Assembly: GCA_025774935.1 (NCBI GenBank)
Contig: JALGZK010000010.1
Span: 3,640 to 67,639, forward strand
From: a bacterium
Lineage (GTDB): Bacteria > Joyebacterota > Joyebacteria > Joyebacterales > Joyebacteraceae
DNA: 64,000 bases
Direction of reading: 5' to 3'
Shown: piece by piece, positions 15,044 through 31,179 of the stretch
Layout of the letters: each line of letters opens with the position of its first letter
Numbering within the stretch: the first letter of the stretch is position 1
Position numbers and translations under genes: made by a program
Notes under the pieces: generated by a model
Seen by the model: the letters and a program-made list of their open reading frames with translations, nothing else
Databases searched by the model: none
What the model was told of the DNA's origin: nothing

Positions 15044-16896
15044 CGCTGCTCCTCCGTGCTCAGGCGGGGCCCGCTCTCCTCCCCTCGGGACCTCCTGAGG
15101 GCTCCGAACGTCCCCAGGAGGATCCTGAGATCGAGGAGGAGCGAGCAGTTCTCGACGTAGAACCTGTCGAGCCTGACCTTCTCCTCGAGGTCGATCTCGT
15201 CCCTCCCATTGATCTGCGCCCAGCCGGTGAGGCCGGGCCGGACCAGGTCGACCCCGACCTGGCGCCTGAGTTCGATCAGCTCGTACTGGTTGTAGAGGGC
15301 GGGCCGCGGCCCGACCACGCTCATCTCGCCGCGGAGCACGTTCACGAGGTTCGGGTACTCGTCGGCGCTCGTCCTCCTCAGGAACCACCCGAACTTCGTC
15401 ACGCAGCCGTCCTTCATCTGGCTGTGGTTCATCAGGTCTGTCGCGAGATCCGGCGTCTCGCGGTGCATCGTTCGGAGCTTCAGGATCGTGAACTCCTGTG
15501 AGTAGACGCCGATCCGCCTCTGCGTGAAGTGCGCGTGCCCCGGCGAGTCGAGCCTGACGGCGATCGCCAGGAGCGCGTGGAGGGGCGCTCCCACGATCAG
15601 GATGCCGAATGCCGTGAGGACGTCTAGCAAGTACTTGACCCCGAGGTAGTAGCGGAACTTGAGGTGGCTTCCGCAGAGCGCGCGCTCTGATGCGAGGATC
15701 TCCTCGAGAAGCTCCTCGAGCTTGCCGGCGAGGGCGGTCCTCGAGTACGCGTCCTCGACGAAGACCCGACCGCTCCTCCCGAGCGTGTGGCGCATCTCGG
15801 CGTCACCAAGGAGCGTCTTCACGGCCTCGGCGAGGCCTCGCCCGTCACCCGGCTTCGTCACGATGCCGCTGCCGGCACGTTCGACGATCTCCCGCGCGTC
15901 GCCCTCCACCGCGGCGACTACTGGCTTCCCGCACGCCATGTAGTCGAAGAGCTTCACCGGGATCGTGCTCGCCGAGAACTCCCCGCTCCTCGTCGTCGCG
16001 AGGCAGAGAGCTGAGCGGTGCACGAGCTCGCTGAGCTCGTCCGGCTGCTTGCTCGGAAGGAACTCGACGTTCCTGAGACCCCGCCCGTCGACCTGGCGGA
16101 CGAGGTCCTGCTTCGCGACGCCGTCGCCCACCAGGACGAACCTCGCGTCGCTCTCGTCCCTCAGGATCTCGGCGGCTTCGAGGATCACGTCCATCCCGTG
16201 AACGAGCCCGTGCGTCCCCGAGTAGATGACCGTCCGGCCGTCTCCGCCGTTGCCAGCGGGTCCTCCGGCGGCCGGAGCGAAAAGCTCCGTGTCCGCCCCG
16301 TTCGTGATGAGCGAGATCCTGTGCCGCGGGATGCCACGCTCGAGCATCAGTCGCTCCATACCGGGCGTGACGGCCACGAGCCTCGCTGCCCGGCGGTAGA
16401 GGAACTGCTCGAGGCTCTCCGCGGCGCGGATGGCCCGCCGGCTCCTCAGCTCGCCGAGCTCGACGGCCGCGTGTGGCCAGTAGTCCCTGAGATCGAGCAC
16501 GAACGGGACGCCACGGACGAGTCCGAGGAACCACGCCGTCAGTCCGAGGAAGAGCGGCGGAGAACTCACGAGGACCAGATCGCACTTCCCCGCGGCGCAC
16601 CCGCCGACCGCGGCGGTGATCATGAACGAGAGCTGGTTCGCAACGCGGGTGAAGAACGTCTTCCTGGGCGTCGCGAAGAGGTAGCACCTCAGGATGCGGA
16701 CGCCGTCTACCTCCTCGCGGCAAGCGAGCTTCCTCCGGTAGCGGGGCTGCTTCACGCCGCTCGGGTGGTTGGGCATGCCCGTCACGACCGTCACGGCGTG
16801 GCCCCGCTTCGCGAGATTCGTCGCGAAGTGATAGGCCCGAAGCGGCGCCGCGCCGGTCTCCGGCGGGTAGTACTGTGTCAGGAAGAGGATCCTCAT
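15040..16896 (-). CDS. Bifunctional GT4 glycosyltransferase / PglC-like phosphoglycosyltransferase (Bac_transf) fusion
   Basis: 618 aa; N-terminal GT4 ([35 protein letters not shown]...), C-terminal ~190 aa sugar-transferase domain (KYLLDVLTAFGILIVGAPL...SVVGPRPALYNQYELI...RPGLTGWAQINGR). Confidence 0.85.
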   Translation of the reverse strand: MRILFLTQYYPPETGAAPLRAYHFATNLAKRGHAVTVVTGMPNHPSGVKQPRYRRKLACREEVDGVRILRCYLFATPRKTFFTRVANQLSFMITAAVGGCAAGKCDLVLVSSPPLFLGLTAWFLGLVRGVPFVLDLRDYWPHAAVELGELRSRRAIRAAESLEQFLYRRAARLVAVTPGMERLMLERGIPRHRISLITNGADTELFAPAAGGPAGNGGDGRTVIYSGTHGLVHGMDVILEAAEILRDESDARFVLVGDGVAKQDLVRQVDGRGLRNVEFLPSKQPDELSELVHRSALCLATTRSGEFSASTIPVKLFDYMACGKPVVAAVEGDAREIVERAGSGIVTKPGDGRGLAEAVKTLLGDAEMRHTLGRSGRVFVEDAYSRTALAGKLEELLEEILASERALCGSHLKFRYYLGVKYLLDVLTAFGILIVGAPLHALLAIAVRLDSPGHAHFTQRRIGVYSQEFTILKLRTMHRETPDLATDLMNHSQMKDGCVTKFGWFLRRTSADEYPNLVNVLRGEMSVVGPRPALYNQYELIELRRQVGVDLVRPGLTGWAQINGRDEIDLEEKVRLDRFYVENCSLLLDLRILLGTFGALRRSRGEESGPRLSTEEQR

Positions 16897-18155
16897 GGCT
16901 TCCTTCCGGCCTCTCCTGCCTGCCCAAGCCTCAGTTCCGATGACGTCCGATCCGCGCCCGTGCGGGATCCGCCCGCCGCGCGCAGGAGCGCCGCGAACGT
17001 GTCCTCGACCTTAGTCACGACTGCGGCGATGTCGTGACTCTCGCGCGCGAGCGTCCGGCCGCGCTCACCCATAGAGCACGCGCGCGCGGGGTCGCTCAGG
17101 ATCTCGAGGAGCGCCCTGCCCATCGCGGGACCGTCGCCCGCCGGGACCAGGAGGCCCGACGAGCCGCGCTCGACCACCTCGGGCACCCCGCCGACGTCCG
17201 TCGCCACGACCGGAAGGCCCGCGGCCATCGCCTCCATCAGGACGTTCGGCGTGCCCTCGGAGGTCGACGAGAGCGCGAAGGCGTCCATGAGCCCGAGCAC
17301 CCGGGGCACGTCCTCCCGGACGCCCGCGAAGATCACGGCGTCCGCGATCCCGAGCTCGTCGGCAACGCGGCCGAGTTCCTGTCTCCTCGCGCCGTCGCCG
17401 ACTATGAGGAAGCGCGCGTCCGGCAACGACCTCGCGACCACCGCCGCCGCCGCGAGGAAGTGCTCGTGTCCCTTTACGTCCGAGAGTTTGCCGACGATCC
17501 CGACCACGGGGTGCCCGTCCGTGCCCAGCTCCCGCGCGAGGTTCCCGTCCCGGAGGACGTGCCGGCTTCCGGCTCCGCCCTCCGTGTCGCCGGGTGCATC
17601 CACCGCCGCTCCCCTGACCGCGCTCCCGACCGAGTAGGGCGTCAGGTCTATGCCGACGCCCACGTTGACGATCTTCCGTTCCGGGACGCGGAACCGCTCG
17701 ACGAGCTCCCTGGCCGCCGCCGCGCTGTTCACGAGGACCGCGTCGACGACCCGACGGTTCGCGTACCCGTAGACCTTCTCCTTCGTTCCGCCCGTGAGCC
17801 AGTACGAGAGGTTCCTCTGGTTGTTCACGACGACCGGCACCCGAGCGGCGCGTCCGACGAACGGCCCGACGATGGTCGTGAGGCCGAGCATGCATGAGAG
17901 AATCTCCACCCGCTCGCGCCTCAGGAACGACGCCGCCCGCGGAAGACCGCGGACGGTCCCCGCCGAGAGAGCGCTCGCCCCGGTCCCGAACTCGTGGACC
18001 GGGACTCCCAAGGACTCGATCACCGGGAGCAGCTCGCCGCGCTTCGCCGTCGACATGACGACCGGGTCGAAGCGCTCCCGGTCGATTCTCGAGAGGAGCT
18101 CGACGAGGAAGCGCTGCGTGCCGGCCCGCTCGAACGACCCGGCCCAGAACGCCAC
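16893..18155 (-). CDS. GT4 family glycosyltransferase
   Basis: 420 aa, GTG start; GT4 C-terminal motifs ([36 protein letters not shown]); stop overlaps the downstream ATG (ATGA). Confidence 0.85.
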
Positions 18156-18224: not shown

Positions 18225-19499
18225 TCACGACGCCGCCTCCTGACGTTCGCCCGTCGGCCCCGCGACGTCACGGCCGCCGCCGCGCGTCGGCCGCGATCGG
18301 GACGATGCGGTCACCTCCCGGAGCGACGAGTGGTTCGGGCGCGAGAGCCGCGCGTACTGGATGTCCGCCGCGAGCCATCGGACGTCCGCGTCGTGCGGGA
18401 CGATCCCGAGCCGGGGCAGGCAGTGCACGGGGTACCGCCTTGAGACGGGCCCGGCGATCGAGGTCACGCCGGATCTGAACCCGGCGTCGGCGACGACCGC
18501 GGCCGTCGTCGCGTCGAAGTGACGGTTCGTCCTTCCGTTCGGGTAGGCGAAGTGCTCGACCTCGCACCCTAGGAGCTCCTCGAGGGCGCGCTTCGACTCC
18601 CCCACCTCGCCGACGAGCGCGTCGGTCGAGACGCTCGGGAGGTTGTAGTGCGTCACCGAGTGCGCGCCGATCGTCATCCCGCCCTCGTGCATCTCCCGGA
18701 TCTCGTCCGGGTTCATCATGATCCTCGAGTCGTACGTGTCCCGCGAGTTCCCGCATGCCTCCCGGACCTCGTTCACGATCTCGAGGGCCTCGCGTTCGCC
18801 CGATCGCTTCACGACCGCGGTAATGAACGCGATCGCCTTCTCCTTCGCGCGCGGGGTCGAGAGGTCTATCGAGCAGGCGCCGAAGGTCCCGCACTTGAGC
18901 CCTTGAGACTCGGTCCTGCGGATCGCGTGGCGAAGGGCGACGGTCCAGAGGATCGATTCGTCCGAGATCGCTCCCGTCGTCACGTAGAACGTCGCGGTCG
19001 CCCCGTGCTTCCTGAGAATCGGGAACGCACAGCGGTAGTTGTCCTCGTACCCGTCGTCGAACGTGATCGCGACGGTTCTCGGGTCGACCCGTCTGCCCGA
19101 AGCGATGGCGTCCGCAAGTTCGGGCACGCCGACGACGCGGTGCCGCTCCACGAGGTAGGCAACCTGCCTGTCGAAGACGTCCGTCGAGACGACCAGGCTC
19201 CGCTGGACGTAGTCTCCCGCCCAGCCGGGGTCGTCGTTGACCGAATGGTAGCGGAGGATCGTCGCACCGCCCCACGGTAGGAGGCTCATGGCCCTCACGA
19301 GAGGCGCGCAGTTCCGGAACGCGCGGCCGAACCCCCACAGGCCGTCGACGGAGATGGCGCCGTTCTCGTCGATGTACGGGACGTCGCCACGCCCCGGGCC
19401 GAGTCCGGCCCTGTCCGCGTCGCCCCACAGGCAGCGGCTCTCCTCGCCGGTGAGACCACGGCCCCTCCCGCGCTCCCTCATGTCGGGGTCCTTCCTCAT
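18225..19499 (-). CDS. Polysaccharide deacetylase (NodB-homology, PEP-CTERM-locus type)
   Basis: ORF 18225..19538; NodB motifs ILRYHSV and VAITFDDGYEDNY. Start placed at ATG 19497-19499, which overlaps the stop of the upstream tandem GT4 gene (ATGA) with GAGGGAG about 11 nt upstream; ATG 19289 is an alternative. Confidence 0.75.
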   Translation of the reverse strand: MRKDPDMRERGRGRGLTGEESRCLWGDADRAGLGPGRGDVPYIDENGAISVDGLWGFGRAFRNCAPLVRAMSLLPWGGATILRYHSVNDDPGWAGDYVQRSLVVSTDVFDRQVAYLVERHRVVGVPELADAIASGRRVDPRTVAITFDDGYEDNYRCAFPILRKHGATATFYVTTGAISDESILWTVALRHAIRRTESQGLKCGTFGACSIDLSTPRAKEKAIAFITAVVKRSGEREALEIVNEVREACGNSRDTYDSRIMMNPDEIREMHEGGMTIGAHSVTHYNLPSVSTDALVGEVGESKRALEELLGCEVEHFAYPNGRTNRHFDATTAAVVADAGFRSGVTSIAGPVSRRYPVHCLPRLGIVPHDADVRWLAADIQYARLSRPNHSSLREVTASSRSRPTRGGGRDVAGPTGERQEAAS

Positions 19500-21832
19500 A
19501 CCGTGTCGAACTCCCTCGCGCGCAGCGCGTCGACCCAACCCACGAGCCCGGACACCCGCTCGTCGAGCAGTTCCAGGTAGTAGTCGATCGTGTCCTCGAC
19601 CATGTGCTCCGTCGAGAACCTGGCGAGGACGCGTTCCCTCCCGGCCCTCCCCATGCGGCGCCGCAGCTCCTCGTCGCCGAGAAGCTCGAGCACGCGACGG
19701 GCGACCCCTTCGGCGTCGCCCGCGGGAAGCAGGAAGCCGGTCTCTCCCTCCTCGATCAGCTCGGGGTTTCCTCCGACGGCGGTCGCCACGACGGGCCTCC
19801 CGGCCGCCATCGCCTCGAGGACCACGTTCGAGCAGCCCTCCTTGATCGAGGTGAGCACGGACACGTCCGTGCTCGCGAGGACGGCGCCGATCCGGTCGGT
19901 CATGCCGGCGAACGTCACTGCCTCCCCGAGCCCGAGCTTCCGCGCGTGCTCGGTGAGCTCCGCCCTGAGCTGTCCGTCTCCGACAATGAGGAACCGCGCG
20001 TCGGGTCTCTCCCTCGCGATCAGAGCGGCGGCCTCGAGGAACGTCGCGTGGTCTTTCTTCGGGGTCAGGCTCGCGATGACGGTGATCGTGGGGCCGCTGC
20101 CCGCGCCGCTCCCGGGGAACGGCTCCGGAGGAGGCGAGCCGGTCCTCGACGGGACGTTTCCGTCGGCGGGCGCCGCGTCGACGTGGCCGCTGACCCGGCG
20201 GACCGAGATCCCGTTGTAGATCACGCGGATCTTCTCCGGGTCGACCCAGTGCATCTCCGCCACGTAGTCCTTGACCGCGCCGGCGTTCACGATCACGCGG
20301 TCCGTGATGCCAGAGAGGATCCTCTCGATGGCGTTTCCGCGAAACCTCGTGTGAACGTCGACGTTCCGCACCGACGTGAGGACGATCGGGACGCGAAGGA
20401 ACCGTCCGACGATGAGCCCCCTCCAGTTCGCCGACGACAGGAACGCGTGCAGGATCACCGGCCGCTCCGTCCTCACCAGACGCGCGAGCTTGCGGGACGC
20501 GCCGGAGAAGTTACCGAGGCGCTTCGCGAGCACGACCAGACGGACCCCGGCCTCCTCGATCTCGCGGCCGAGCGGCCCCAGCTGGCCGAGGCAGCAGACG
20601 ATCGGCTCGAACCGGTCCCTCGGGAGCCGGGTCGCGAGCTCCATGAGCTGGCGCTCGGCCCCACCGCGTTCGAGCTGTCCGATCACGTAGAGGACCTTGA
20701 TCTTCCCGGCCGGGGCGCGGTCCGCGTGCCCCGAGAGCGCAAGGTCGTAGAGCGCCTCCGTCTGCCCGACCATGTGCTTAGCGGTGAAGGCCTTCTCGTA
20801 GGACCGGCGGGCCGCGGCCGCAAGACGCGACCTCCGCCCGGCGTCCCTCGAAAGGAGAGCTATCTTGTCCGCGAGCGCTTCGTGGTCCCGCGGCGGAACC
20901 ACGTACCCGTTCACGCCGTCCCTGATCACCTCTGGGACGCCCCCGACGGCCGTCGAGACGCACGGGACCCCGGCCGCCATCGCCTCGAGCACCGTGATCG
21001 GCAGCCCCTCCCACGCCGAGGAGAGGACGAAGAGGTCCGATCCCCTGAGGAGCCTCGGCACGTCGTCGCGCGACCCGAGGAACGACACGCGATCGCCGAC
21101 GCCGAGCTCGGCCGCGTGGTCGCTCAGGTGCTGGAGGATCGGGCCGCCGCCGGCGACGGCGAAGTACACGGGCGGGACCAGGTCGGAGACTGCCGCGGCC
21201 GCCCGGATGAGGTTCTCGTGGTCCTTCTGTGGACTGAGGTTGCCGACGGTCAGGCAGAGGACGGCGTCGTCGGGCACGCCCAGCTCGCGTCGCACCTCTG
21301 CGCGGTCGCCGGCGACCGGGCGAAGTGTGTCGTCGATGCCGTTCCGGATGGTCACGAGGCGCGCCGGGGAGAACCTCCCCTCGGCGAGCCGGGACCGGGC
21401 GACGGCCTCCGACACGGCGATCTGCGCGTTCTCGCGCATGCTCGCGAGCCTGCTCAACGCGAGCCTGAATGGGAAGCGAGCCGCGGCGACGTTGTGCTCG
21501 GTGCGGAGCACGGCGGTGGCCCCGCCGAGGATGGCGGCGGGGATTCCGACGGTCATCGCAGTGAAGTTGTGGTCGTGGACGACATCGACGCCGCGTCGCC
21601 TGATTAGACCGGCGAGTCTGAGGACGGCGCGGAAGTCGAGACGCGACCTTCGTTCCAGGGCGTGGACGGGGACGCCGCGTTCGTCGAGGACGGCAGCCAG
21701 GGGACCCGCGTCCCCCACGCAGCACACCTCGGGCTCGTAGCGCGAGCGGTCGTGGGAGGTCGCGTACTCGACCACCACGCGCTCGGCCCCACCGAGCCCC
21801 AACGAACCAACGACGTGGAAGACCTTCTTCAT
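19496..21832 (-). CDS. Tandem GT4-GT4 glycosyltransferase (two complete GT4 modules in one polypeptide)
   Basis: Start at ATG 21832 (MKKVFHVVGSLGLGGAERVV); first module ends ...EALYDLALSGH, second begins KIKVLYVIGQLERGGAERQ; each has an EGxP...EAMAAG C-terminal signature. The 525 codons upstream in the same track ORF are Arg-rich and overlap the CoA-ligase-like gene, so they are rejected. Confidence 0.8.
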   Translation of the reverse strand: MKKVFHVVGSLGLGGAERVVVEYATSHDRSRYEPEVCCVGDAGPLAAVLDERGVPVHALERRSRLDFRAVLRLAGLIRRRGVDVVHDHNFTAMTVGIPAAILGGATAVLRTEHNVAAARFPFRLALSRLASMRENAQIAVSEAVARSRLAEGRFSPARLVTIRNGIDDTLRPVAGDRAEVRRELGVPDDAVLCLTVGNLSPQKDHENLIRAAAAVSDLVPPVYFAVAGGGPILQHLSDHAAELGVGDRVSFLGSRDDVPRLLRGSDLFVLSSAWEGLPITVLEAMAAGVPCVSTAVGGVPEVIRDGVNGYVVPPRDHEALADKIALLSRDAGRRSRLAAAARRSYEKAFTAKHMVGQTEALYDLALSGHADRAPAGKIKVLYVIGQLERGGAERQLMELATRLPRDRFEPIVCCLGQLGPLGREIEEAGVRLVVLAKRLGNFSGASRKLARLVRTERPVILHAFLSSANWRGLIVGRFLRVPIVLTSVRNVDVHTRFRGNAIERILSGITDRVIVNAGAVKDYVAEMHWVDPEKIRVIYNGISVRRVSGHVDAAPADGNVPSRTGSPPPEPFPGSGAGSGPTITVIASLTPKKDHATFLEAAALIARERPDARFLIVGDGQLRAELTEHARKLGLGEAVTFAGMTDRIGAVLASTDVSVLTSIKEGCSNVVLEAMAAGRPVVATAVGGNPELIEEGETGFLLPAGDAEGVARRVLELLGDEELRRRMGRAGRERVLARFSTEHMVEDTIDYYLELLDERVSGLVGWVDALRAREFDTV

Positions 21833-21930
21833 CTCGACAACCCCGTGCACCCTTCCCGGCACTCGAGACGCCGGGTCCTTCGTTTCGCCTCGCTGTCTGC
21901 GCCGAGTCTCGCCCTTCGCGTCGCCCGCCC

Positions 21931-23439
21931 CTACGACGAGGCGCGGGAGGCGCCGGCGCGTTCCTCCTCTGACTCCTCCGTGCTCTCCACCCCGACCTCT
22001 CCCCCGCCTCCCTCCTGGTAGAGGTTCGCCGTGGTCGTCTTCCCCCACACGAGCGGCACCGTGGAGATGACCCGGCGGTACTTGCCTCGGCCGACGAGGG
22101 GAATGTCGTCGACGTACTCGATGGCGACCCGGACGTCGGGACCGAGCCTCTCGGCGATGTTCCTCCTGAGATCGTCCTCGTCGTGCGCCGCGAGCGGCTG
22201 CTTCACCACGAGCCGTGTGGTGATTTCCGCGGGGTCGTGCTGGACGATCTGCGACCTGACGATGCCCGGAAGAAGCTTGAACGCGCGCGCGACCATGAGA
22301 GGCGGCACGAGCCGGCCGTCCGGCGTCACCAGGATGTCCTCCGCCCGCATCGCCACGTCCCTCATGAGCGGCAGCTTCCTGCCGCAAGGGCAGTCGGTCC
22401 CCGCCATGGAGGCGGTGTCGCCGACCTCGTAGCGGATGAGCGGCATCCCGAAGTTGTGCAGGCCGGTCGCGACGACTCGTCCGACCGTACCGTCCGGAAC
22501 GGGGTCTCCGTCGTCGTCGAGGAGCTCCGTGATGCCGAACTCCATGTAGAGGTGGTGCCCCGTGTGCCGGTCGCACTCGCTCGAGTACATCACGCGCTCG
22601 GACTGACTGTAGCCGTCGAAGACCCGGCACTGGAACCGCTCCTCTATCACCTCGCGCTCGACGTCGAGGAGGGGCTCGGACGTCGTGAAGACGCACCTGA
22701 GCGGCAGGTACTCGTCGCGCTCCTCCATGAACCGGGCCAGGACGTACGCCGCGGTCGGGTGCGCGTCGAGCGCCACGACGCCGACCTCCCGCATCGCCTC
22801 GATGTAGAGCGGAGCGGACTCGTCGGTCATGTGGAGCGGAGACAGCATGAGGTAGTTCCACGGCCGGTTGTGGCGCCAGTAGGGAGGTCCCTTCTGGTCG
22901 AGAGGAACGACCGGGCGTCCGAGACACGTGGCGATCGGCTCGCCGAACTCGACCCCGGCCCAGTTCCGCTCGCGCCAGAGGCACGCGTTGTTCATGTAGC
23001 CGATCTCCCGGTCCCAGTACATGTAGAGGGACGAACCTGTCGTTCCGGCGCTGTGCGTCTTCTTGAGTGACTTCCTCGGGGCGGCGTCGGACACCAGCTG
23101 CTCGATGCTCCGGTCGACGTCCGCGCGCGTGAGCACGGGCAGCTTCGGCAGGTCGGAGAGACGAGTGATGTCGCCGGGGACGAGCTTGAGGCCGCTCATG
23201 AGGTCGCGGTAGTAGGGCACCGTCTCGTACGCGTGCCTCACGACCAGGCGGAGTCGCTCCTCCTGGTACGCCTCGAGCTCCTCGAGCGACAGCCACTGTG
23301 ACCGGTCGAGCAGCTCGCTCGCGCGGTCGAAACCCTGCCCGAAGCGCTCGCGGCGCAGCTTCCAGCCGTAGGCCGACATGATCACATTCTGGATCGGCAC
23401 GGGGCACCGGCTGTAGAGTCTCTCTCCGACGTACTCCAT
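21931..23439 (-). CDS. Adenylate-forming enzyme, phenylacetate-CoA ligase (PaaK)/CapK-like
   Basis: ORF 21931..23484; start at ATG 23439 (MEYVGERLY) with GAGGT upstream; motifs SAGTTGSS (P-loop-like A3), YRDL, FKLLPGIVRSQIV; acidic low-complexity C-terminal tail (ESTEESEEE). Confidence 0.7.
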   Translation of the reverse strand: MEYVGERLYSRCPVPIQNVIMSAYGWKLRRERFGQGFDRASELLDRSQWLSLEELEAYQEERLRLVVRHAYETVPYYRDLMSGLKLVPGDITRLSDLPKLPVLTRADVDRSIEQLVSDAAPRKSLKKTHSAGTTGSSLYMYWDREIGYMNNACLWRERNWAGVEFGEPIATCLGRPVVPLDQKGPPYWRHNRPWNYLMLSPLHMTDESAPLYIEAMREVGVVALDAHPTAAYVLARFMEERDEYLPLRCVFTTSEPLLDVEREVIEERFQCRVFDGYSQSERVMYSSECDRHTGHHLYMEFGITELLDDDGDPVPDGTVGRVVATGLHNFGMPLIRYEVGDTASMAGTDCPCGRKLPLMRDVAMRAEDILVTPDGRLVPPLMVARAFKLLPGIVRSQIVQHDPAEITTRLVVKQPLAAHDEDDLRRNIAERLGPDVRVAIEYVDDIPLVGRGKYRRVISTVPLVWGKTTTANLYQEGGGGEVGVESTEESEEERAGASRASS

Positions 23440-23446
23440 CCTCACC

Positions 23447-24550
23447 TCACGAGCGGCGGACCGACCGCGCCGCGCTCGACTCAACGAGCTTCAGGTAGGC
23501 CGTCTCGATCGTCCTCATGTTCTTCGAGAGGTCGCCCCTCTCCTCCACGATCGCCCTGTTGATCTCCGAGGCGCGCGCCCTCAGCTCGCGATCCGAGAGG
23601 GCGGCGGTAATCGCCTCTGCGTACGCCTCCGGGCCTTTGTCTGCGACCAGGAAGCCGTTTCGTCCGTGCTCTATCCAGTGGCGGTTCGCTGCGTTGTCCC
23701 AGACGATCGGGAAGCAGCCGCGCGCCATCGCTTCAAGGAGCGAGGCCGACACGCCGTCGACCCTGACGGCAGCCACGTAGACGCTCGAACTCCCGAGGAG
23801 CTTCGGGAGCTCGTCGTACGCCACTCCCCCCGCGAACCACACGCGGTCGTCAATCCCGAGGTCGCGCGTGAGCCCCTCGAGCTCCGCCGCGCAGTTCCCG
23901 GTCCCGGCGACCGCGCCCGTGATGGCGGGGACGTCCTTCCTGGCGAGCGCGAGCGCCTGGAGCACGACGTCGAGCCTGTAGTGGCGCTGGAGCGACCTCG
24001 TCGTGATCACCGAGTACTCTTCGTCGGCCCCGTCGTCCCGGGGCGCGAACCGCGCGAGGTCGATCCCGCGGGGGCACTCGAAGATCTTCTCCCGGTCCGC
24101 TCCGAGTTCGACCAGGCGATCCGACATGTGGGGCGCCCACGAGTGGATGAGGTCGGCCCGCCGGAGCGTCATCCGTACGGGTATCCTCTTCTGGGCGCGG
24201 AACGGCAGACCGACGATGATCTGGCTCTGCGCGACCACGACCAGCGGGTGGAACCCGGACATCGCGGCCACGAAGCCGTAGCTCGGGACCCGGTACCCGA
24301 CCACGAGGTCGGGCTCTATCTCGGCGATGATCTTCCTCACGCGCGGGATCTTCCCCAGATTCGCTACCCTTCCCGCGAAGCCCGGCTCGCCCTCCACGAC
24401 CGACAGGTCCCGCACGTCGATCGACGGGTCGAGCTCGGCCGGGGGACTCATGGACAGCACGTGCACGTCGTGGCCGAGCACCTTCGAGAAGTGCTCGACC
24501 CAGCTTCGCGTGTTCACGCTGCTGCCGTCTGCGAGAAAGCAGACCCGCAC
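23447..24550 (-). CDS. GT4 family glycosyltransferase
   Basis: ORF 23447..24607; start at GTG 24550 (VRVCFLADGSSVNT) with AGGAGG about 6 nt upstream; C-terminal SLLEAMARGCFPIV...GRNGFLV GT4 motif. Confidence 0.8.
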   Translation of the reverse strand: MRVCFLADGSSVNTRSWVEHFSKVLGHDVHVLSMSPPAELDPSIDVRDLSVVEGEPGFAGRVANLGKIPRVRKIIAEIEPDLVVGYRVPSYGFVAAMSGFHPLVVVAQSQIIVGLPFRAQKRIPVRMTLRRADLIHSWAPHMSDRLVELGADREKIFECPRGIDLARFAPRDDGADEEYSVITTRSLQRHYRLDVVLQALALARKDVPAITGAVAGTGNCAAELEGLTRDLGIDDRVWFAGGVAYDELPKLLGSSSVYVAAVRVDGVSASLLEAMARGCFPIVWDNAANRHWIEHGRNGFLVADKGPEAYAEAITAALSDRELRARASEINRAIVEERGDLSKNMRTIETAYLKLVESSAARSVRRS

Positions 24551-24575: not shown

Positions 24576-26600
24576 CTAGCCGCCGGACACCCAGCAGGCG
24601 TCCTCACCCGGCTGCCCGCTCTTCGTGAACAGGACCGTCTGTCCCGCCACGTTCGCCCCGATGAAGTCCCCCGTGTCGATGAACGTCACGTTCGGCATCG
24701 ACGAGACGCCCGACGAGGTCGCGTAGAGGACGTGCAGGAACATGTGCTCGTTTGCCGCGGTCGACGGTGACACCTCCACGCGCCACGACCCGCTCTCCGA
24801 CCCTCCGCCTCCGGCGGGCGGGTAGTTGACACCGTTCACCTCGAACTGCCGGCCGCTTCCGCCGACCGGCGTGATCTGGTGCTGCGTCGGGAGGAGCGTC
24901 TTCACGAACAGCCTCGAGTCTCCCTGCGTGACCGAGAACGTGTCGCCGGACACCTGGGGCTGGTTGATCGAGTGGAGGAGCCACTTCTTGGTGAACGACG
25001 GGGACGTGGCAGTGACCCTGTCCAGCACGACGAAGAAGTCCGGCTTGAGCCACACGAACTCCCTGGTGAAGTTCGAGAGCTTGTGCGACGAGTAGGCCTT
25101 CGTGGCGTCGCCCTTGACGTAGGTGAACGTCTCGGTGTCCCTGTACGGCGTGACGATGCTCCCGCGGTCGAACTCCGGGCCCGACATGTCGCCGCAGACG
25201 ACGGCGTCCGGATAGCTCCAGACCGGGATCTGACCTCCGTCGTTCGCGTACGGATAGAACGTCGACTCGCCGGGGTCGTAGACCGTGATCGTGTTGTGGG
25301 CGATGGTGCGGCAAAAGTAGTTCTGATGATGGGAGCTGATCGACGAGTCGTAGTCGCCCGAGTCGATCGCCAGGAGGTCGTTCCCCCTCGCAATCAGGAA
25401 GTGACCCTGATGGGAGTGGGTGTGGTACGACGGGACGGCCTCGCAGCGGAAGACGGCGTAGATGTCCGTGCTGTTCACGGAGAGGTCCCAGCCGGACCTC
25501 ATGTACACCATGCCCACGTCGTTGAAGAGGGCGGCGCTGTTGTCGCCGTAGACGGCGGACGGGTGGACGGGCGTGACCGACGGGTCCCGCCACACGATCT
25601 GCTTCCAGCGGTCGAACGAGTTGATGTACCCGGATCCCTGCTCGAGGACCTCGTCCGCCACCCACTGGGCCACCCCGTCGTTGTAGACGGCGGCCAGGTT
25701 GTAGAGCGCCATTCGGACGGCCCCCGACCCGCCGCTGTGCCAGTGGGAGTCGCCCTGCTTCGAACCGAGCGACGTCCCGCTCCCCTTCGCGGCGCCCGTG
25801 TCGTAGACGAGGTAGCGGGCCATGTTCTGGTAGTTGGTCGACCACGAGAACGGGTCGTCGGTGGTTCCGACGTCGTAGGCCGTCATGCCCATCCTGTTAC
25901 CCGTGCAGAGGATCGACATGTTGTAGTCGCCCTCGAAGTAGCCTCCGTCGCTCGCGATCTCGTCGAGACAGCAGAGGATGGTCGAGGAGCCGAACTGGTG
26001 GGCCGAGTACGTGTCGAGGCACGCGGTCGCGACCTGGTTGTTGATGCCCTCTCCGTACAGCGCGATGCCCGGGTACGACAGGAGCGCGATCCTCCCGAGC
26101 TTGGAGTGGTAGTTGTTCAGGCTGCTCCACTGCGTCCCGATGCCGCTGCCGCTCTGATACCAGTCGGCACCGTCTGCGAGCGCGCTGCCGTAGGTGCTGC
26201 GCTCGGACGCGGTGAGCCCGTCGTAGCACCAGTCGAAGAACACGCTCCCCCCGAAGATCCAGTCGGTCGAGTGGGTCTGGTTGTGGCTGATCACGTACGA
26301 CGCGACCGCCTTGGCCCGGTTGAGGTAGCTGGTGTCCTGGCTGACGAGGTAGACGAAGCTGTACGACGAGAGCGCCCAGCTCACGTTCACCGGCAGCGGG
26401 TCGTTGATGTGGCTGTCGCACCAGGTCTTGATCTTGTTGTAGTCCGCGGAGTAGGAACCCAGGGCTCTCGAGCGGATGCCGGAGACCTGGCTCGCCGTGA
26501 AGAAGAGCCGCGGGTGTCCCTGGATGACCTGGTACCCCTCCGCCGGGACCACCATGGCCACGACGACGAGAAAGAGCACAGCTAGGGTAGTGAGTCTCAT
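24576..26600 (-). CDS. Secreted heparinase II/III-like polysaccharide lyase family protein
   Basis: ORF 24576..26657; start at ATG 26600 (MRLTTLAVLFLVVVAMVVPAEG signal peptide) with GAGGAG upstream; large Trp/Tyr/His-rich carbohydrate-active fold; start overlaps the upstream stop (ATGA). Confidence 0.65.
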   Translation of the reverse strand: MRLTTLAVLFLVVVAMVVPAEGYQVIQGHPRLFFTASQVSGIRSRALGSYSADYNKIKTWCDSHINDPLPVNVSWALSSYSFVYLVSQDTSYLNRAKAVASYVISHNQTHSTDWIFGGSVFFDWCYDGLTASERSTYGSALADGADWYQSGSGIGTQWSSLNNYHSKLGRIALLSYPGIALYGEGINNQVATACLDTYSAHQFGSSTILCCLDEIASDGGYFEGDYNMSILCTGNRMGMTAYDVGTTDDPFSWSTNYQNMARYLVYDTGAAKGSGTSLGSKQGDSHWHSGGSGAVRMALYNLAAVYNDGVAQWVADEVLEQGSGYINSFDRWKQIVWRDPSVTPVHPSAVYGDNSAALFNDVGMVYMRSGWDLSVNSTDIYAVFRCEAVPSYHTHSHQGHFLIARGNDLLAIDSGDYDSSISSHHQNYFCRTIAHNTITVYDPGESTFYPYANDGGQIPVWSYPDAVVCGDMSGPEFDRGSIVTPYRDTETFTYVKGDATKAYSSHKLSNFTREFVWLKPDFFVVLDRVTATSPSFTKKWLLHSINQPQVSGDTFSVTQGDSRLFVKTLLPTQHQITPVGGSGRQFEVNGVNYPPAGGGGSESGSWRVEVSPSTAANEHMFLHVLYATSSGVSSMPNVTFIDTGDFIGANVAGQTVLFTKSGQPGEDACWVSGG

Positions 26601-28141
26601 GATGTCATCTCCTCTGCTGTCCGGGGAGCTTTGTCGGTTGCTGCGAAACGGACGCATCTATCTACAAGACCGGCGAGGAAGAAATAGGTCCCCGCGATCG
26701 ACATGTTCAGGAATCTCTCTCCGAAGACGTTCGCCGCAAGGAGCGCCGCGGTGGCGCTCAGGAAGCCGAGGGCGATGCCTCTGTCCAGCCTGCGGGATGC
26801 TGCGCGCAGGAGCTCTATGCCGCTCTTCACGCACGACACGAGGAGCCACGCGAGCGCGACTATTCCGATGAGACCCGCCTCTCCGAAGATCGCGACGTAG
26901 AGGTTGTGGGACGAGAACGACCGGCCGATCTCCTTGTAGGTCAGGAACGGGATGGTCGAGTACCCCATCCCCCAGATTGGCGAGCTGCGCATCGTCTCGC
27001 GGAAGACGATCCCCCAGATCTTGAGCCTCACCCCGGCGGACGGGTCGAGTTTGTCCGTCGGGTCTCCCATGAGCTCGGCCTCGACCGTGTCGACCCGAGT
27101 CTCCGCCACTCGGTCCTTCACGAAGTCGGGAGCCCAGATCGGGCTCAGCGCCAGCACGATCAGGAAGAGCACGAAGACGCGCTTGCTCACGCTCAGCGTC
27201 AGGAGCCCGAGCCCGCACGCGAATCCCACCAACGCCCCTCGGGAGTTCGGGAGGAAGACGCCGATCGCGGCGAATGCGGACGACACCCAGATCGTGAGTC
27301 GCTTCATCATCGGGAAGATCCTCGATGACACGAGGACGATCCCGATGATCATCGTGGCGCACATCGCGAAGTACGCGCCGAGGTCGTTCACGTCGCCGAG
27401 CGCACCTGAGACGCGCTGGTGCGAGGCGAGCCCGCCGTACTGGTCGAGCGCGATGAGGGCGCCGACCGTCAGACCGACGCCGAAGGTCACGAGGAGGTTC
27501 TTCATCTGCTCGCGGTTCTCGACCGTGTTCACGACGACGAAGTAGACCGCGATCCCGAGGACGCTGTTCCAGAGGTTCTTGACGAGCACCATCGCCGGGT
27601 AGCTCCCCGTCGACGGTGGGAAGACAACGACCTTGAGGAGCGACATGAAGAGCACGCCGATGAACAGGGCGATCGGCACGGTGAGCCTCGCCCTCACGAA
27701 GATCTGCTGTCTCGCGAAGATCCTGGGGACGATCCAGCTCACCAGGAGGATGATGAAGATGAGGTTGGGCGCGTTGATCCCGGGAATGCCCGTCGCGGGG
27801 AGGTACTCGCCGAGCGGGAGAGCGAGGAGCCAGGCGTGCAGCGCGACGTGGGGCCGGAAGAACGCGACTGTGAAGATGGTCACGCCCACGAGGATCTTGA
27901 TGATCCGGTGCGGAGCCTGCCCGTACGCGTAGTGGAGCTGGAAGATCGCGTAGGCCATGCCGAGAGCGACGACCGCGGCCACGACGTACAGCAGCCAGGC
28001 GTAGCTGTACTGCGGCACCTGGCTCGGCAGCGGGGGCGGCGCCGGGGTCTGTCTCGGCGTTCCGGGATCAGCCACCGCTCTCCTCCTCCGCGTGCTCCGT
28101 CGCGTCCGTCGTCCCGGCGTCCATGACCTCCGCCGCGTCAC
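26597..28141 (-). CDS. O-antigen ligase / Wzy-like polymerase family membrane protein
   Basis: About 12 TM helices; Wzy_C-like motifs RGALVGFACGLGLL and SSHNLYVAIFGEAGLIGIVAL. Start uncertain: ATG 28141 overlaps the upstream gene by 74 nt and gives an Arg-rich N-terminus; GTG near 28018 (VPQYSYAWLLYVV) is the alternative. Confidence 0.75.
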   Translation of the reverse strand: MTRRRSWTPGRRTRRSTRRRRAVADPGTPRQTPAPPPLPSQVPQYSYAWLLYVVAAVVALGMAYAIFQLHYAYGQAPHRIIKILVGVTIFTVAFFRPHVALHAWLLALPLGEYLPATGIPGINAPNLIFIILLVSWIVPRIFARQQIFVRARLTVPIALFIGVLFMSLLKVVVFPPSTGSYPAMVLVKNLWNSVLGIAVYFVVVNTVENREQMKNLLVTFGVGLTVGALIALDQYGGLASHQRVSGALGDVNDLGAYFAMCATMIIGIVLVSSRIFPMMKRLTIWVSSAFAAIGVFLPNSRGALVGFACGLGLLTLSVSKRVFVLFLIVLALSPIWAPDFVKDRVAETRVDTVEAELMGDPTDKLDPSAGVRLKIWGIVFRETMRSSPIWGMGYSTIPFLTYKEIGRSFSSHNLYVAIFGEAGLIGIVALAWLLVSCVKSGIELLRAASRRLDRGIALGFLSATAALLAANVFGERFLNMSIAGTYFFLAGLVDRCVRFAATDKAPRTAEEMTS

Positions 28142-29957
28142 CGAGCGTGAGTTCGTAGATCTCGACCACCGGGTTGTGGAACGAACGGCCGGGCCCGCGA
28201 TCGATCGACGGCATCGGGAACGTCTCGGCGAACCGCGCGACGCGGACGCCGTTCTCCCCGATCCAGTCGAGGAGCGTGCTCGGGCTGGGCGTGCCGGGCG
28301 GCTCCGCGCCCTCCATGGGCCGCCTCTGGTCCGCCTTGCTGGTGATCACGAGGTAGTCGGGGCGGATCTCCTCGATCGCCGCGATCATCGCGGCCTGGTC
28401 GTCGCCGGCCTCGGGGATCCGGAAGAGCTCCTGCCCCCAGCCGGAGCCGAAGATCCGGTACTGCGGGTGCCTCGCCCGACCGATGTCGAGCTCGAGCTCG
28501 TTGATGCGCCGCTTCGACGCGCTCCACGAGGAGACGCCCGTTTTGTCGGCTTCGATCGCGTGCTCGAGCTGCGCTGTCGCGCGGTTGAGCTCCGGCCCGT
28601 AGGACTCGACCACCACCGTGCTCCCCGCCTCGATGTTCTCCTCCACCCACTGCTTCGCCTGCGTGCGCGTGTCGGTCGCGTCGAGCGCGCGGACGAATCG
28701 GAGCGATGGCCACGCGGCGAACGCCAGCACGACGATCGCGACGGTCGTTGCCGCGGCCACCGCCGACGGGGCGCGCGACGTACCGCGTCCGCCGGGTGTC
28801 CGATCGAACGTCCCGAGCCCGAGCAGGAGGACGATCCCCGCGCCCGCCATGGCGGCGATCGCCGGGATCGCCGGCGTCACGTACGTCGAGCGCTTCACGG
28901 TGATCGCGATCAGGAACAGGAGGACGCAGACGACGTAGACGAGCGAGATGAGCGCGCCCGCGAGCCTGAGCTCGGGATGACCCGGTTCGAGCTTGTCGCC
29001 GGCCCTGCCGCGGCGCGCCCCCCGACCCTCGGCCACGCCGCGGCTGAGAGCGAGCACGAACCCGAGGACCGCGAGCAGGAGCACGGGGTAACCGACGCCC
29101 CGGCCGAGGCTCTTCCCGAACACTTCCCCGAGGCCTCGCCAGATCGAGCTCGCCTCCTGGGCGACGCCCGACTCGGACACCATCGTGAACTGCATGAGGA
29201 CGTCTCTCGAGAACTCGCCCGCGCTCACGACCGAGTACGGGGTTCCGATCACGAATCCGACGACGCACGCGACGATCGCGGCCGGGAGCACCCACGCCGC
29301 GATCGCCCGTCTCGAGACGAGGAAGACGAACGCCGTGAGGGTCCCCGCGAAGACGATCACTCCGGGGTACTTGGTGGACGCGGCCAGTCCGGCCAGGAGA
29401 CCCGAGAGAACGAGCTGGCTCGCCCGCCCGGAACGGACCGCGTAGAGAGCGAACAGGAGCGAGACCGACGCGAGGAAGGTCGTCGCCACGTCCGGAGTCG
29501 CGTAGTGCGAGTCGCGGACGTGAAGGAAGCCCACCGCGACCAGGGCCGCCGCGATGAGCCCGGCCGCCCTCCCGAAGGCCGTTCGGCCGAAGAGATACGT
29601 CGTCCAGACGGTGGCGACCCCGGCCGCCACCGAGACGTATCGTCCGATGAGCCAGAACGGCGTTAGGTCGGTGAGGTACGCGCGCGCGAGGTCGAGCGGC
29701 CCGCCGAACGTGCCGGCCGCCTTCCCGATGAGGTAGAAGACGGCGTAGAGGCCGAACACGAAGTACATCATCAGGGACGGCCACCTGAACCAGTGAGGGT
29801 TCATGTCGCCGGTGCCGAATCCGAGCGAGTGGATGAGGATCGAGCCCTCGTCGGGATGGTATGCGTGCGGGAGCCCCCACCCGATCCCCCAGATGCGGAT
29901 CCAGAGGGCGACCCCGATGATGACGATGAGGATGATCGTAGCGTTGCGTCGGCTCAT
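28068..29957 (-). CDS. GT39/ArnT-like (GT-C fold) membrane glycosyltransferase
   Basis: 629 aa; N-terminal polytopic domain with the HPDEG motif (AYHPDEGSILIH) typical of ArnT/PMT-type undecaprenyl/dolichyl-phosphate-sugar-dependent transferases; C-terminal soluble domain. Confidence 0.8.
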   Translation of the reverse strand: MSRRNATIILIVIIGVALWIRIWGIGWGLPHAYHPDEGSILIHSLGFGTGDMNPHWFRWPSLMMYFVFGLYAVFYLIGKAAGTFGGPLDLARAYLTDLTPFWLIGRYVSVAAGVATVWTTYLFGRTAFGRAAGLIAAALVAVGFLHVRDSHYATPDVATTFLASVSLLFALYAVRSGRASQLVLSGLLAGLAASTKYPGVIVFAGTLTAFVFLVSRRAIAAWVLPAAIVACVVGFVIGTPYSVVSAGEFSRDVLMQFTMVSESGVAQEASSIWRGLGEVFGKSLGRGVGYPVLLLAVLGFVLALSRGVAEGRGARRGRAGDKLEPGHPELRLAGALISLVYVVCVLLFLIAITVKRSTYVTPAIPAIAAMAGAGIVLLLGLGTFDRTPGGRGTSRAPSAVAAATTVAIVVLAFAAWPSLRFVRALDATDTRTQAKQWVEENIEAGSTVVVESYGPELNRATAQLEHAIEADKTGVSSWSASKRRINELELDIGRARHPQYRIFGSGWGQELFRIPEAGDDQAAMIAAIEEIRPDYLVITSKADQRRPMEGAEPPGTPSPSTLLDWIGENGVRVARFAETFPMPSIDRGPGRSFHNPVVEIYELTLGDAAEVMDAGTTDATEHAEEESGG

Positions 29958-30011
29958 GCGCTCCTCTCCGGACGCGGTCCCGCGGCTCTGCGCCGCGCGG
30001 CCCGGCGCCCG

Positions 30012-30371
30012 CTAGCTCCGCGAGATGACGAACACGCCGAGACAGATGATGACGAGACCTATGGTCCTCACGGCCGTGATGTGCTCCCCCAGAAAGAGCC
30101 AGGACGCCACGAAGACGAGCACGTACGCGAGGCTCACCATCGGGTACGCGAGGCTCAGGTCCACGTTTGACACCACCGCGATCCACAGGACGGCGGAGAG
30201 CCCGTAGCAGACGAAGCCGATCGCCACCTGCGGGACCTTGAGGATCGGGACGAGCTGACCCCACACGCTTCCTGCCGACACCTCGCCGTAGATCATCATC
30301 CCCTTCTTCATGATGACCTGGCCGGTGGCTCCCAGCAGGACCGCCGCGAGGATGAGCGGGATTCCCTTCAT
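30012..30371 (-). CDS. Small 4-TM DMT/SMR-like membrane protein (ArnE/ArnF- or GtrA-like flippase subunit)
   Basis: 119 aa, four hydrophobic helices, MKGIPLILAAVLLGATGQVIMKKG N-terminus typical of EamA/SMR-like Und-P-sugar flippase subunits; sits between the GT2 and GT39 genes. Confidence 0.65.
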   Translation of the reverse strand: MKGIPLILAAVLLGATGQVIMKKGMMIYGEVSAGSVWGQLVPILKVPQVAIGFVCYGLSAVLWIAVVSNVDLSLAYPMVSLAYVLVFVASWLFLGEHITAVRTIGLVIICLGVFVISRS

Positions 30372-30426
30372 CGAGCGCCTCCTCCACGAACCCGGACCGG
30401 CCGCGCGCCGCGGCCCCGGGCACGGA

Positions 30427-31179
30427 CTACGATGGTCTCCTGATGGCCTGACGTCCTGCGGCGACCATCACGAGGTATCGCCTGATGGTGTCCAGGATGT
30501 TCATCTTGCTCGCGCCGCCCTTCCTGTCGTACCTGAGGACGAGCGGCACCTCTGTCACGCGCGACGGGAGCTGCGCGAGCTTGAGAAGCACCTCGGCGGA
30601 CGAGACGAACCCGGACTCCGTGATGAGGTCGTCTCCGAAGACCCGGAATCCCGCCGCGAGGGTCGAACCCCTGTAGGCCCTGTATCCGCACGAGTAGTCC
30701 CGCACCCCGGGCACTCGCAGGAACGTCCTCAGGAGCATGCTCGCACCCTTGCTCAGGAAGCTCCTGAGAGGCGACAGCCCGACCTCCCTTCCGCCCTTCG
30801 CGTACCTGGAGGCGATGACGATGTCGTAGCCGTCATCGATCCGCTCGAGCATGTCCGGTATGATCGACGGATCGTGCGTGTCGTCGGTGTCCATGCCTAC
30901 GAGCACGCCGTCCTCGCCCGCGATGTCCTTGCCGCGAGCGAACCCGGTCCTGAGCGCCTCCCCGAGGCCGCGGTTGGTCTCGTGCGTCTCGACCGTCAGC
31001 TCGAGCCCGAGCTCCCGGGCGCGCTCCCTGGCCTTCTCCGCGGTCCCGTCTGAGCTCCCGTCGTCGACGAGGAGCACGCCCGCGGGACGGTCGACCCGGC
31101 CGAAGACGGCCGCGATCTTCTCCAGCAGGGGCCCGATCGCTCCGGACTCGTTGTATGCCGGCAGCATCACTACGAGCAT
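30427..31179 (-). CDS. GT2 polyprenyl-phosphate glycosyltransferase (ArnC/GtrB/DPM1-like)
   Basis: 250 aa; MLVVMLPAYNE start, VLLVDDGSSDGT (DxD-type), VGMDTDDTHDP; GAGGA Shine-Dalgarno upstream. Confidence 0.85.
   Translation of the reverse strand: MLVVMLPAYNESGAIGPLLEKIAAVFGRVDRPAGVLLVDDGSSDGTAEKARERARELGLELTVETHETNRGLGEALRTGFARGKDIAGEDGVLVGMDTDDTHDPSIIPDMLERIDDGYDIVIASRYAKGGREVGLSPLRSFLSKGASMLLRTFLRVPGVRDYSCGYRAYRGSTLAAGFRVFGDDLITESGFVSSAEVLLKLAQLPSRVTEVPLVLRYDRKGGASKMNILDTIRRYLVMVAAGRQAIRRPS

Follow-up and report, generated by a model that had tools for sequence, protein, structure and literature searches.

A CapK_C/VpsH-type protein and its probable tailoring role in an exosortase-linked exopolysaccharide locus of Candidatus Eisenbacteria

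What does an adenylate-forming enzyme do in the midst of the glycosyltransferases of a bacterial exopolysaccharide (EPS) locus? The question is raised by an open reading frame (ORF) at 21931-23439 on the minus strand of a 64-kb stretch of contig JALGZK010000010.1, which was analyzed over its whole length and is referred to as the window. A reading made from the DNA letters alone (the sequence-only reading) had placed this gene in an EPS operon, amid its block of glycosyltransferases, and GT4 glycosyltransferase genes identified by Pfam are indeed present on both of its flanks. The protein, which we call the ligase for brevity, very probably belongs to this EPS pathway as an adenylate-forming tailoring enzyme of the CapK_C/VpsH type, and it most likely attaches a small amine or an amino acid to the secreted polysaccharide. 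In our preferred reading, to which we assign a probability of about 0.5, the ligase would adenylate a sugar carboxylate of the lipid-linked repeat unit and amidate it with an amine or amino acid.

Family and catalytic core of the ligase

We first consider the family to which the ligase belongs. A precomputed match to the Pfam family PF27533 (CapK_C, E at most 1e-5) exists for the identical protein P0001 (JGI sample 3300041074, contig of 87.6 kb), and PF27533 is likewise recorded for all 120 homologs listed. The ligase matched 23,788 cluster representatives (50% identity) at E<=1e-3, 14,329 at 1e-10 and 4,166 at 1e-30, and relatives were found across bacteria and archaea when one genome per GTDB species was scanned. 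Via the Vibrio relative in locus L083 this search led to VpsH of Vibrio cholerae (P0212, 446 aa, annotated as 'capK protein, putative' and as 'exopolysaccharide biosynthesis protein VpsH'), which carries PF27533, too. The ligase and VpsH share 32% identity over 460 positions (206 bits, E 1e-65, residues 8-461 versus 6-442), whereas the comparison with Escherichia coli PaaK (b1398) yields 27% identity over 357 positions and 77 bits; VpsH itself scores 55 bits against E. coli PaaK. Comparison of the Eisenbacteria clade (alignment A1) with the VpsH clade (alignment A2) by hhalign gave a probability of 100% and an E of 4.4e-85 over 435 columns, and both clades fall into one region of the family, far from PaaK, in a rough neighbour-joining tree. 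The alignment of the ligase with VpsH furthermore takes in an N-terminal helical extension and a VPLxQ(K)xPPFWR segment, both of which are missing in PaaK. The motif PPFWRxNxxW was also considered as a family-wide substrate marker and discarded, because its strict form is confined to the Eisenbacteria-level clade.

The NCBIfam models of the PaaK type match the ligase at E 1e-25 to 5e-37, yet all of them stay far under their cut-offs: the DVU_1553 family reaches 127.8 of 300 bits, the haloarchaeal PaaK model (NF041878) 124.7 of 700 and TIGR02155 89.9 of 646.3. The cut-off of the coenzyme F390 synthetase model TIGR03335 is not reached either (53.6 versus 458.7 bits), and no exosortase-associated ligase model is among the 12 NCBIfam families that match the ligase at E up to 1; the model to be expected here is TIGR03098, which we take to be the exosortase-A-associated AMP-forming acyl-CoA ligase. 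Given its 206 bits against VpsH and 77 bits against E. coli PaaK, and the wide margin by which it falls short of the PaaK and F390 equivalog models, the ligase does not qualify as an acyl/aryl-CoA ligase by any test applied here, and the sequence-only reading, which had called it acyl/aryl-CoA-ligase-like, needs correction on this point. As judged by sequence comparison, the ligase is a member of the CapK_C/VpsH family and not a phenylacetate-CoA ligase.

Is the ligase nevertheless built as an adenylate-forming enzyme? The AMP-binding family PF00501 gives only 18.6 bits against the ligase (gathering score 29.9), restricted to residues 211-328. This miss seems to be usual in the family, as about two-thirds of the homologs listed carry PF27533 only and some carry PF00501 in addition. 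An adenylation-domain match is thus obtained through the PaaK-type models and not through PF00501; of the two profiles by which the sequence-only reading had proposed to recognize the enzyme, AMP-binding failed and CapK_C matched. By sequence, PaaK chains of the PDB match the ligase at E 3.5e-23 and 5.6e-20, the second being PaaK2 (2y4o) over residues 45-458. An AlphaFold2 model of the ligase, built on the 24 homologs of alignment A1, has a mean predicted local distance difference test score (pLDDT) of 88 and a predicted template modelling score of 0.85, and pLDDT values below 50 occur only in residues 476-502. When this model was compared to the PDB with Foldseek, PaaK2 (2y4o), PaaK1 (2y27) and BT_0428 were the top matches (E 2e-27, probability 1.0), followed by 2-hydroxyisobutyryl-CoA ligase and then by the PaaK-family AMP-ligases NatL2, AjiA1 and ClxA. 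NCBIfam, PDB, PF27533 and AlphaFold2 with Foldseek hence agree on the PaaK/CapK-like adenylate-forming identity that had been proposed from the letters.

The ligase therefore shares its two-domain fold and the ANL core motifs with PaaK (E. coli b1398; Burkholderia cenocepacia PaaK1/2, 2y27 and 2y4o). It differs from PaaK in an extra N-terminal extension of about 45 aa, in a PPFWRxNxxWNQ insertion and in the lack of the P-loop lysine; no paa-type catabolic family is present among the Pfam matches across the window. Conservation was scored in the 24 homologs of A1 and in 91 distant homologs, and the gene with its motifs is as follows:

21931..23439, minus strand: coding sequence of the ligase, VpsH/CapK-type with PaaK fold, 502 aa (ORF, NCBIfam and PDB PaaK-type matches, PF27533, AlphaFold2 with Foldseek, VpsH homology)
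23029..23052, minus strand: P-loop/A3 motif SAGTTGSS, residues 130-137 (G132, T133, T134 and G135 nearly invariant in A1; aligns to SSGTTG of PaaK)
22597..22611, minus strand: A5-type motif YSQSE, Y277-E281 (Y277 and E281 invariant in A1 and at 96-97% in the 91 distant homologs)
22336..22419, minus strand: A7 Asp341 (YEVGD), CxCGR (C350, C352) and A8 hinge RAED, R365-D368 (D341, C350, C352 and D368 invariant in A1)
22081..22083, minus strand: predicted A10 catalytic lysine K453 in GRGKYRRV (invariant in A1, aligned with GKaRRV of PaaK2, 97% in the distant homologs)

In the 91 distant homologs D341, C350, C352 and R365 are kept at 96-98%, while D368 lies outside the columns conserved to at least 80%. 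The family consensus of A3 is TSGTTGSPL, and the lysine of the PaaK motif TTGKP is missing from it. Since the core ANL motifs A3, A5, A7, A8 and A10 are present and conserved, the ligase appears to be catalytically capable of forming adenylates.

The gene starts with an ATG at 23437-23439 and ends with a TAG stop at 21931-21933, and a spacer of 7 nt (GGTGAGG) separates the ATG from the TGA of the upstream GT4 gene. A longer ORF of 517 aa that starts with TTG is not the gene, because the closest homologs begin with MEY(V/L)(G/T)ER (alignment A1) as does the ATG version. A further ORF of 1303 aa (19496-23407, minus strand) was dismissed as a high-GC artefact: it is the frame of the downstream double GT4 gene read upstream through the ligase gene out of frame (GC content at third codon positions, GC3, 0.73). 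The ligase has no hydrophobic segment by hydropathy and thus neither a signal peptide nor a transmembrane segment, and no paralog of it is encoded in the window.

Paralogs are a frequent trait of the family elsewhere. Tandem CapK_C copies amount to about nine in a Chloroflexia metagenome-assembled genome (MAG; L073) and to three in Methanoculleus palmolei (L026), and fused, double-length CapK_C proteins of 830-980 aa occur as well; the tandem and fused examples include P0242-P0252, and further loci with such copies are L018, L019, L037, L041, L042, L045, L046, L052 and L083. Paralogs of the Eisenbacteria ligase with 45-50% identity are also found outside any glycan locus (L004, L006, L010 and L012); the MAG of L012 also contains the EPS-locus copy found in L009. 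Among their neighbours are a signal peptidase and a DUF5683 protein as well as proteins that end in FlgD_ig domains.

The VpsH precedent and the proposed reaction

Which reaction the ligase might catalyze is best approached through VpsH. Deletion of vpsH in a vpsI background leads to the accumulation of a glycine-free BPP-Glc-GulNAcA disaccharide (PMC13463779, July 2026). The authors of that study liken VpsH in part to CapK-like proteins and acyl-CoA ligases and propose that a carboxylate is activated at the expense of ATP before the amide is formed, and in the Vibrio polysaccharide (VPS) the amino group of glycine is joined to C-6 of the uronic acid (PMC13463779). Since glycine is bound through its amino group, the carboxylate of the sugar itself must be the activated one. 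VpsH is the only member of the family with functional evidence, which is genetic and not biochemical.

The two proteins resemble each other beyond their overall similarity. VpsH (VC0924) and the ligase have in common PF27533, the N-terminal helical extension, the (P)PFWR segment, CxCGR and the A10 lysine, and both are soluble and cytoplasmic. Like the ligase gene, vpsH has a GT4 gene as its direct neighbour and lies in an EPS locus of the Wzy type with a WecB/VpsA homolog. The ligase is 56 aa longer than VpsH (502 versus 446 aa), mostly owing to a disordered tail, and the identity of both is only 32%. The loci differ as well: that of the window is devoid of VpsB (the dehydrogenase), VpsJ, VpsK and VpsF and possesses a CE4 deacetylase, a heparinase II-like protein and an exosortase instead.

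The ligase is a fixed part of its own locus. The gene order Wzy_C, Hepar_II_III, GT4, ligase, double GT4, CE4, GT4, initiating sugar-phosphate transferase and exosortase is kept in five Candidatus Eisenbacteria loci (L001, L002, L003, L008 and L009), the last four of which come from other samples and other Candidatus Eisenbacteria MAGs, and the ligase is 52-72% identical across them (72% in L002, 53% in L003). WecB, a GT2 and a PMT_2 protein vary between these five loci and the ligase is always present. Pfam detected no acyl carrier protein (ACP), acyltransferase or thioesterase in the conserved locus. Taken together, the tie to VpsH, the place among glycosyltransferases, the cytoplasmic location and the lack of an ACP, acyltransferase or thioesterase suggest a tailoring step of the VpsH type.

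The ligase would act as a soluble cytoplasmic enzyme whose gene shares a transcript, and probably translational coupling, with the glycosyltransferase genes of the locus. It would bind the undecaprenyl-diphosphate-linked intermediate of the repeat unit at the inner membrane face and adenylate the carboxylate of one sugar, most likely a hexuronic or N-acetylhexosamine (HexNAc)-uronic acid. The acyl-adenylate would then be resolved by a small amine or an amino acid through its amino group, which would leave an amide substituent; CoA would not be needed for this step. The downstream GT4 enzymes would extend the unit, which would afterwards be flipped, polymerized and exported. From these comparisons we infer the sugar carboxylate as the adenylated substrate, the independence of CoA and the lipid-linked acceptor. 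The sequence-only reading had assumed that a free carboxylic or amino acid is activated for attachment to the glycan. A role in glycan decoration remains the best reading, but the VpsH precedent implies that the sugar carboxylate is activated and that the amino acid serves as the nucleophile, so that the direction of activation is probably the opposite one.

The net reaction proposed here, ATP-dependent amidation of glycan uronic acids with an amine or amino acid, is carried out by ATP-grasp amidoligases such as the C-terminal domain of Campylobacter jejuni Cj1438 and the serine-adding enzyme of E. coli K40. These differ from the ligase in their unrelated fold and in proceeding through an acyl-phosphate instead of an acyl-adenylate. 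NatL2, AjiA1 and ClxA (6siw, 6wuq and 9s3l) have the PaaK fold and match the ligase structurally at E 1e-19 to 1e-20 with 17-20% identity; they join the acyl-adenylate to an O or N nucleophile directly, with no need for CoA. The PaaK fold can thus perform the proposed chemistry, although the substrates of these three enzymes are small aromatic acids of natural-product pathways. CapK of the cap1 locus of Staphylococcus aureus serotype 1, presumably the namesake of CapK_C, is a PaaK-like adenylate former in a capsule locus and may carry out the same type of reaction. This CapK may add taurine to the polymer, a role that no experiment known to us has shown. In the type 1 capsule of S. aureus, taurine is amide-linked to GalNAcA (PMC12043029). 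The K40 and K54 enzymes are also mentioned in connection with VPS (PMC13463779).

Does the polymer of this locus contain a uronic acid at all? The secreted heparinase II-like protein of the locus matches heparinase II structure 2fuq at E 8e-42 over residues 361-663 and retains the HxH, D and H positions, in our view those that hold the metal and carry out catalysis in heparinase II. Lyases of the heparinase II class act on uronic-acid-containing polymers, and the gene is present in all five orthologous loci. If this lyase of the EPS operon is directed at the operon's own product, the polymer would contain uronic acid, and the heparinase II-like protein is the sole hint at such a polymer in the locus.

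Several observations weigh against amidation of a uronic acid. Searches with tblastn and phmmer found no homolog of E. coli Ugd or WecC or of V. cholerae VpsB in the 64-kb window, and there is no UDP-sugar 6-dehydrogenase within 10 kb of the ligase in any of the five orthologous loci. The WecB/VpsA homolog of the window hence stands without its usual dehydrogenase partner, and homologs of VpsJ, VpsK or VpsF are absent from the window, too. In a survey of the neighbourhoods of 86 family loci (L001-L006 and L008-L087, 10 kb from the CapK_C gene, with no background set of loci), a UDP-sugar 6-dehydrogenase is found within 10 kb in only 9 loci and a CE4 deacetylase in 18, which argues that a link to uronic acid is not general in the family. 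The identity of 32% to VpsH leaves room for another substrate, the precedent of VpsH is itself a genetic one, and paralogs of the ligase with 45-50% identity reside outside any glycan locus, for instance in L004 and L006.

Two candidates for missing parts of such a pathway were examined and dismissed. A GFO/IDH/MocA oxidoreductase and an LbH protein are encoded as a pair at 1196-3039 on the plus strand and could recall a WbpB/WbpD-like uronic acid pathway; they have no WbpA or WbpE beside them and are followed by housekeeping genes. The best NCBIfam model for this oxidoreductase is UDP-GlcNAc 3-dehydrogenase at 160 bits with a cut-off of 450, and the pair lies next to the gene of a PEP-CTERM protein. 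Kinship of the heparinase II-like protein with VpsJ was dropped as well, since no similarity was found between them; VpsJ has been tied to other folds (PMC13463779).

Composition of the locus

The locus was annotated by Pfam and NCBIfam and from the gene calls made on the source contig. It forms a single-strand block, to which the following features belong or adjoin:

34658-35845, minus strand: Wza-like export protein at the head of the locus (Pfam; XrtA-system NCBIfam models below cut-off)
32339-34591, minus strand: Wzc-like chain-length determinant with tyrosine kinase (Pfam; XrtA-system NCBIfam models below cut-off)
31170-32333, minus strand: non-hydrolysing UDP-GlcNAc 2-epimerase, the WecB/VpsA homolog (TIGR00236, 475.7 bits, cut-off 210)
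30427-31179, minus strand: GT2 of 250 aa that resembles polyprenyl-phosphate sugar synthases
30012-30371, minus strand: small EamA-like membrane protein, 119 aa
28068-29957, minus strand: PMT_2 GT-C glycosyltransferase
26597-28018, minus strand: Wzy_C (O-antigen polymerase/ligase-like) membrane protein (Pfam, gene call)
24576-26600, minus strand: secreted heparinase II-like (PL21-type) protein (Pfam Hepar_II_III_C; N-terminal hydrophobic segment)
23447-24550, minus strand: upstream GT4 with Glyco_trans_4_2 N-terminal domain, 367 aa (Pfam, gene call)
21934..22014, minus strand: disordered acidic C-terminal tail of the ligase, residues 476-502, EGGGGEVGVESTEESEEERAGASRASS (pLDDT below 50, in-frame GC3)
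21833..21930, minus strand: spacer of 98 nt before the double GT4, whose ATG is at 21832 (no feature detected)
19496-21832, minus strand: fused double GT4, 778 aa (Pfam; the first module passes the cut-off of stp2, TIGR03088)
18225-19499, minus strand: CE4 polysaccharide deacetylase without hydrophobic segment, predicted to be cytoplasmic (PF01522; matches to PDB 6dq3 and PgaB; hydropathy)
16893-18155, minus strand: GT4
15040-16896, minus strand: GT4 fused to an initiating polyprenyl-phosphate sugar-phosphate transferase (Bac_transf), 618 aa (Pfam, NCBIfam)
14105-15043, minus strand: exosortase, XrtA-like (195 bits, cut-off 208)
13464-14108, minus strand: EpsI (Pfam, NCBIfam, gene call)
12483-13367, minus strand: polytopic membrane protein of 294 aa with about 7-8 hydrophobic segments (no Pfam or NCBIfam match; directly after EpsI in L001-L003)
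10957-12480, minus strand: TPR protein
9372-10853, minus strand: sigma-54 response regulator
3154-4032, minus strand: PEP-CTERM protein

The WecB homolog of the window is 52.5% identical to E. coli WecB and 54.8% to VpsA. The double GT4 fusion is kept in L002 (771 aa) and L003 (794 aa), and the fusion of GT4 with Bac_transf is kept in the orthologous loci. Within the 86 loci of the survey GT4 genes occur in 45, and no decisive partner gene emerged from it.

The genes at 28068-31179 (minus strand) resemble an ArnC/ArnE/ArnT module, which is accessory, as its GT2 and PMT_2 are absent in L002 and L003. Directly upstream of the EPS locus lies a D-Ala-D-Ala ligase gene (36080-37132, minus strand), likewise in L002 and L003. 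A large secreted protein encoded at 4333-6357 (minus strand) ends in a FlgD_ig-like domain (fn3 and purple-acid-phosphatase-N), and FlgD_ig-like C-termini are also found in L004 (1-1030, a peptidase C25) and in L006 (12283-13719). This domain may be a lineage-specific C-terminal sorting domain.

The end of the ligase gene had drawn the attention of the sequence-only reading by an acidic ESTEESEEE tail, called unusual, and by a gap of about 100 nt. The tail is there, with ESTEESEEE at residues 485-493 and 8 D/E and 2 K/R among its 27 residues. Members of the family usually stop about 12 residues past the A10 region (...VPLxWGxxxxxNLY(E/Q)), and in most homologs with more than about 52% identity a stretch of 10-40 residues follows that is rich in G, S, A, D and E; these stretches are not mutually alignable. 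Similar tails in most of the closest homologs speak against an unusual feature, and the tail of the ligase is an unremarkable, lineage-variable disordered extension. The GC3 is 0.92 in the core of the gene and 0.85 in its last 27 codons, as opposed to 0.74 and 0.63 in the other two frames. The gap exists as well and measures 98 nt, but it is featureless: no promoter or terminator was detected on its coding strand, its predicted folding is no more stable than that of shuffled sequences (z 0.35) and Rfam gave no match. In L002 and L003 the spacer downstream of the ligase is 51 nt and 0 nt long, respectively.

Alternative reactions and significance

The strongest competitor of uronic acid amidation, possible though improbable in our estimate, starts from the deacetylase. 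Here, the CE4 enzyme would strip the N-acetyl group from a HexNAc, and the ligase would adenylate a free carboxylic or amino acid and transfer it to the freed amine, much as in the VimE/VimA system; this would retain the direction of activation that had been assumed from the letters. The CE4 gene lies two genes downstream of the ligase, lacks a signal or transmembrane segment and is present in all five orthologous loci. The 18 family loci with CE4 within 10 kb include the nearest relatives outside Eisenbacteria (L011, L015 and L018) and distant Xanthomonadales, whose gene order in L071 reads deacetylase, Wzy_C, Wzx, ligase and GT4. According to Pfam, the ligase is moreover the only candidate acylating enzyme in the locus. 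The 18 CE4 loci and the 9 dehydrogenase loci never coincide among the 86, which could reflect two functional classes; this non-overlap is not significant, however, as only about 1.9 overlaps are expected.

Against such an N-acylation stands that the locus of VpsH, the sole studied relative, has no deacetylase and that the amide is made at the sugar carboxylate there. The CE4 of the window does not match the NCBIfam model specific for the deacetylase of XrtA loci, and the freed amine may simply stay free. Furthermore, no PaaK-fold enzyme is known to us that N-acylates an amino sugar.

The comparison with VimE and VimA deserves a closer look. In the Wbp/Vim pathway of Bacteroidota, N-2 of a linking sugar receives Ser or Gly through the deacetylase VimE and VimA, and the type IX sortase joins protein C-termini to this sugar (PMC7468200). 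In other bacteria VimA-like genes are located near a deacetylase, glycosyltransferases, an AsnB-like gene and an exosortase, and an amino-acid-modified sugar has been put forward as exosortase acceptor, a speculation of that study (PMC7468200). VimE/VimA and the deacetylase/FemAB-like pairs of XrtA loci resemble the window locus in that a CE4 adjoins an amino-acid-adding enzyme, glycosyltransferases and a sorting transpeptidase (PMC7468200). VimA differs from the ligase, as it is GNAT/FemAB-like and not adenylate-forming. The window contains no VimA or FemAB homolog among its Pfam and NCBIfam matches, and no FemAB/VimA-like gene lies between deacetylase and ligase in the Xanthomonadales loci, where Wzy_C and Wzx are found in this place. 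One could imagine that in exosortase loci without a VimA/FemAB gene the ligase and CE4 build an amino-acid-bearing linking sugar, the free amine of which would be the acceptor, long searched for, onto which exosortase transfers the cleaved C-termini of PEP-CTERM proteins. We regard this as a long shot; if true, it would constitute an adenylate-forming counterpart of the Wbp/Vim pathway of type IX secretion.

It is unlikely that the ligase is a genuine acyl- or aryl-CoA ligase that feeds an acyltransferase encoded elsewhere and thereby serves O- or N-acylation of the polymer. The source annotation 'phenylacetate-CoA ligase' would fit this view, as would the fact that the best-scoring NCBIfam models are CoA ligases (the DVU_1553 family and haloarchaeal PaaK) and that the window encodes an LbH acyltransferase at 2284-3039 on the plus strand. 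Yet all CoA-ligase equivalogs are widely missed (128 of 300, 125 of 700 and 90 of 646 bits), the ligase is much closer to VpsH than to PaaK, and the conserved locus contains no acyltransferase, ACP or thioesterase. The LbH gene itself is 19 kb away on the opposite strand and is paired with the GFO-type oxidoreductase.

That the ligase is a passenger gene, or its 3′ end an assembly or frameshift artefact, is highly improbable: the tail is of low complexity and the sole independent copy of the exact protein stems from the same contig, but the gene occupies the same position in five loci (52-72% identity) obtained from different samples and MAGs, the tail GC3 is highest in frame, the tails of orthologs are alike in length and composition, and all catalytic motifs are intact.

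We hence return to uronic acid amidation as the preferred reading. For this gene the outcome is mostly confirmatory and ordinary. The CapK_C family is very large, is routinely mislabelled as 'phenylacetate-CoA ligase' and has functional evidence for one member, VpsH; the analysis contributes a corrected annotation, shows that the exosortase EPS locus of Eisenbacteria has the ligase as a constant part of its core, and provides a testable tie to VpsH. The analysis also adds a data point to the questions which decorations exosortase-associated polysaccharides carry and whether these bear any relation to protein anchoring. If the proposed reaction is true, an uncultured phylum, represented here by an organism known only from metagenomes, would produce an amide-decorated and hence charge-modified matrix polymer.

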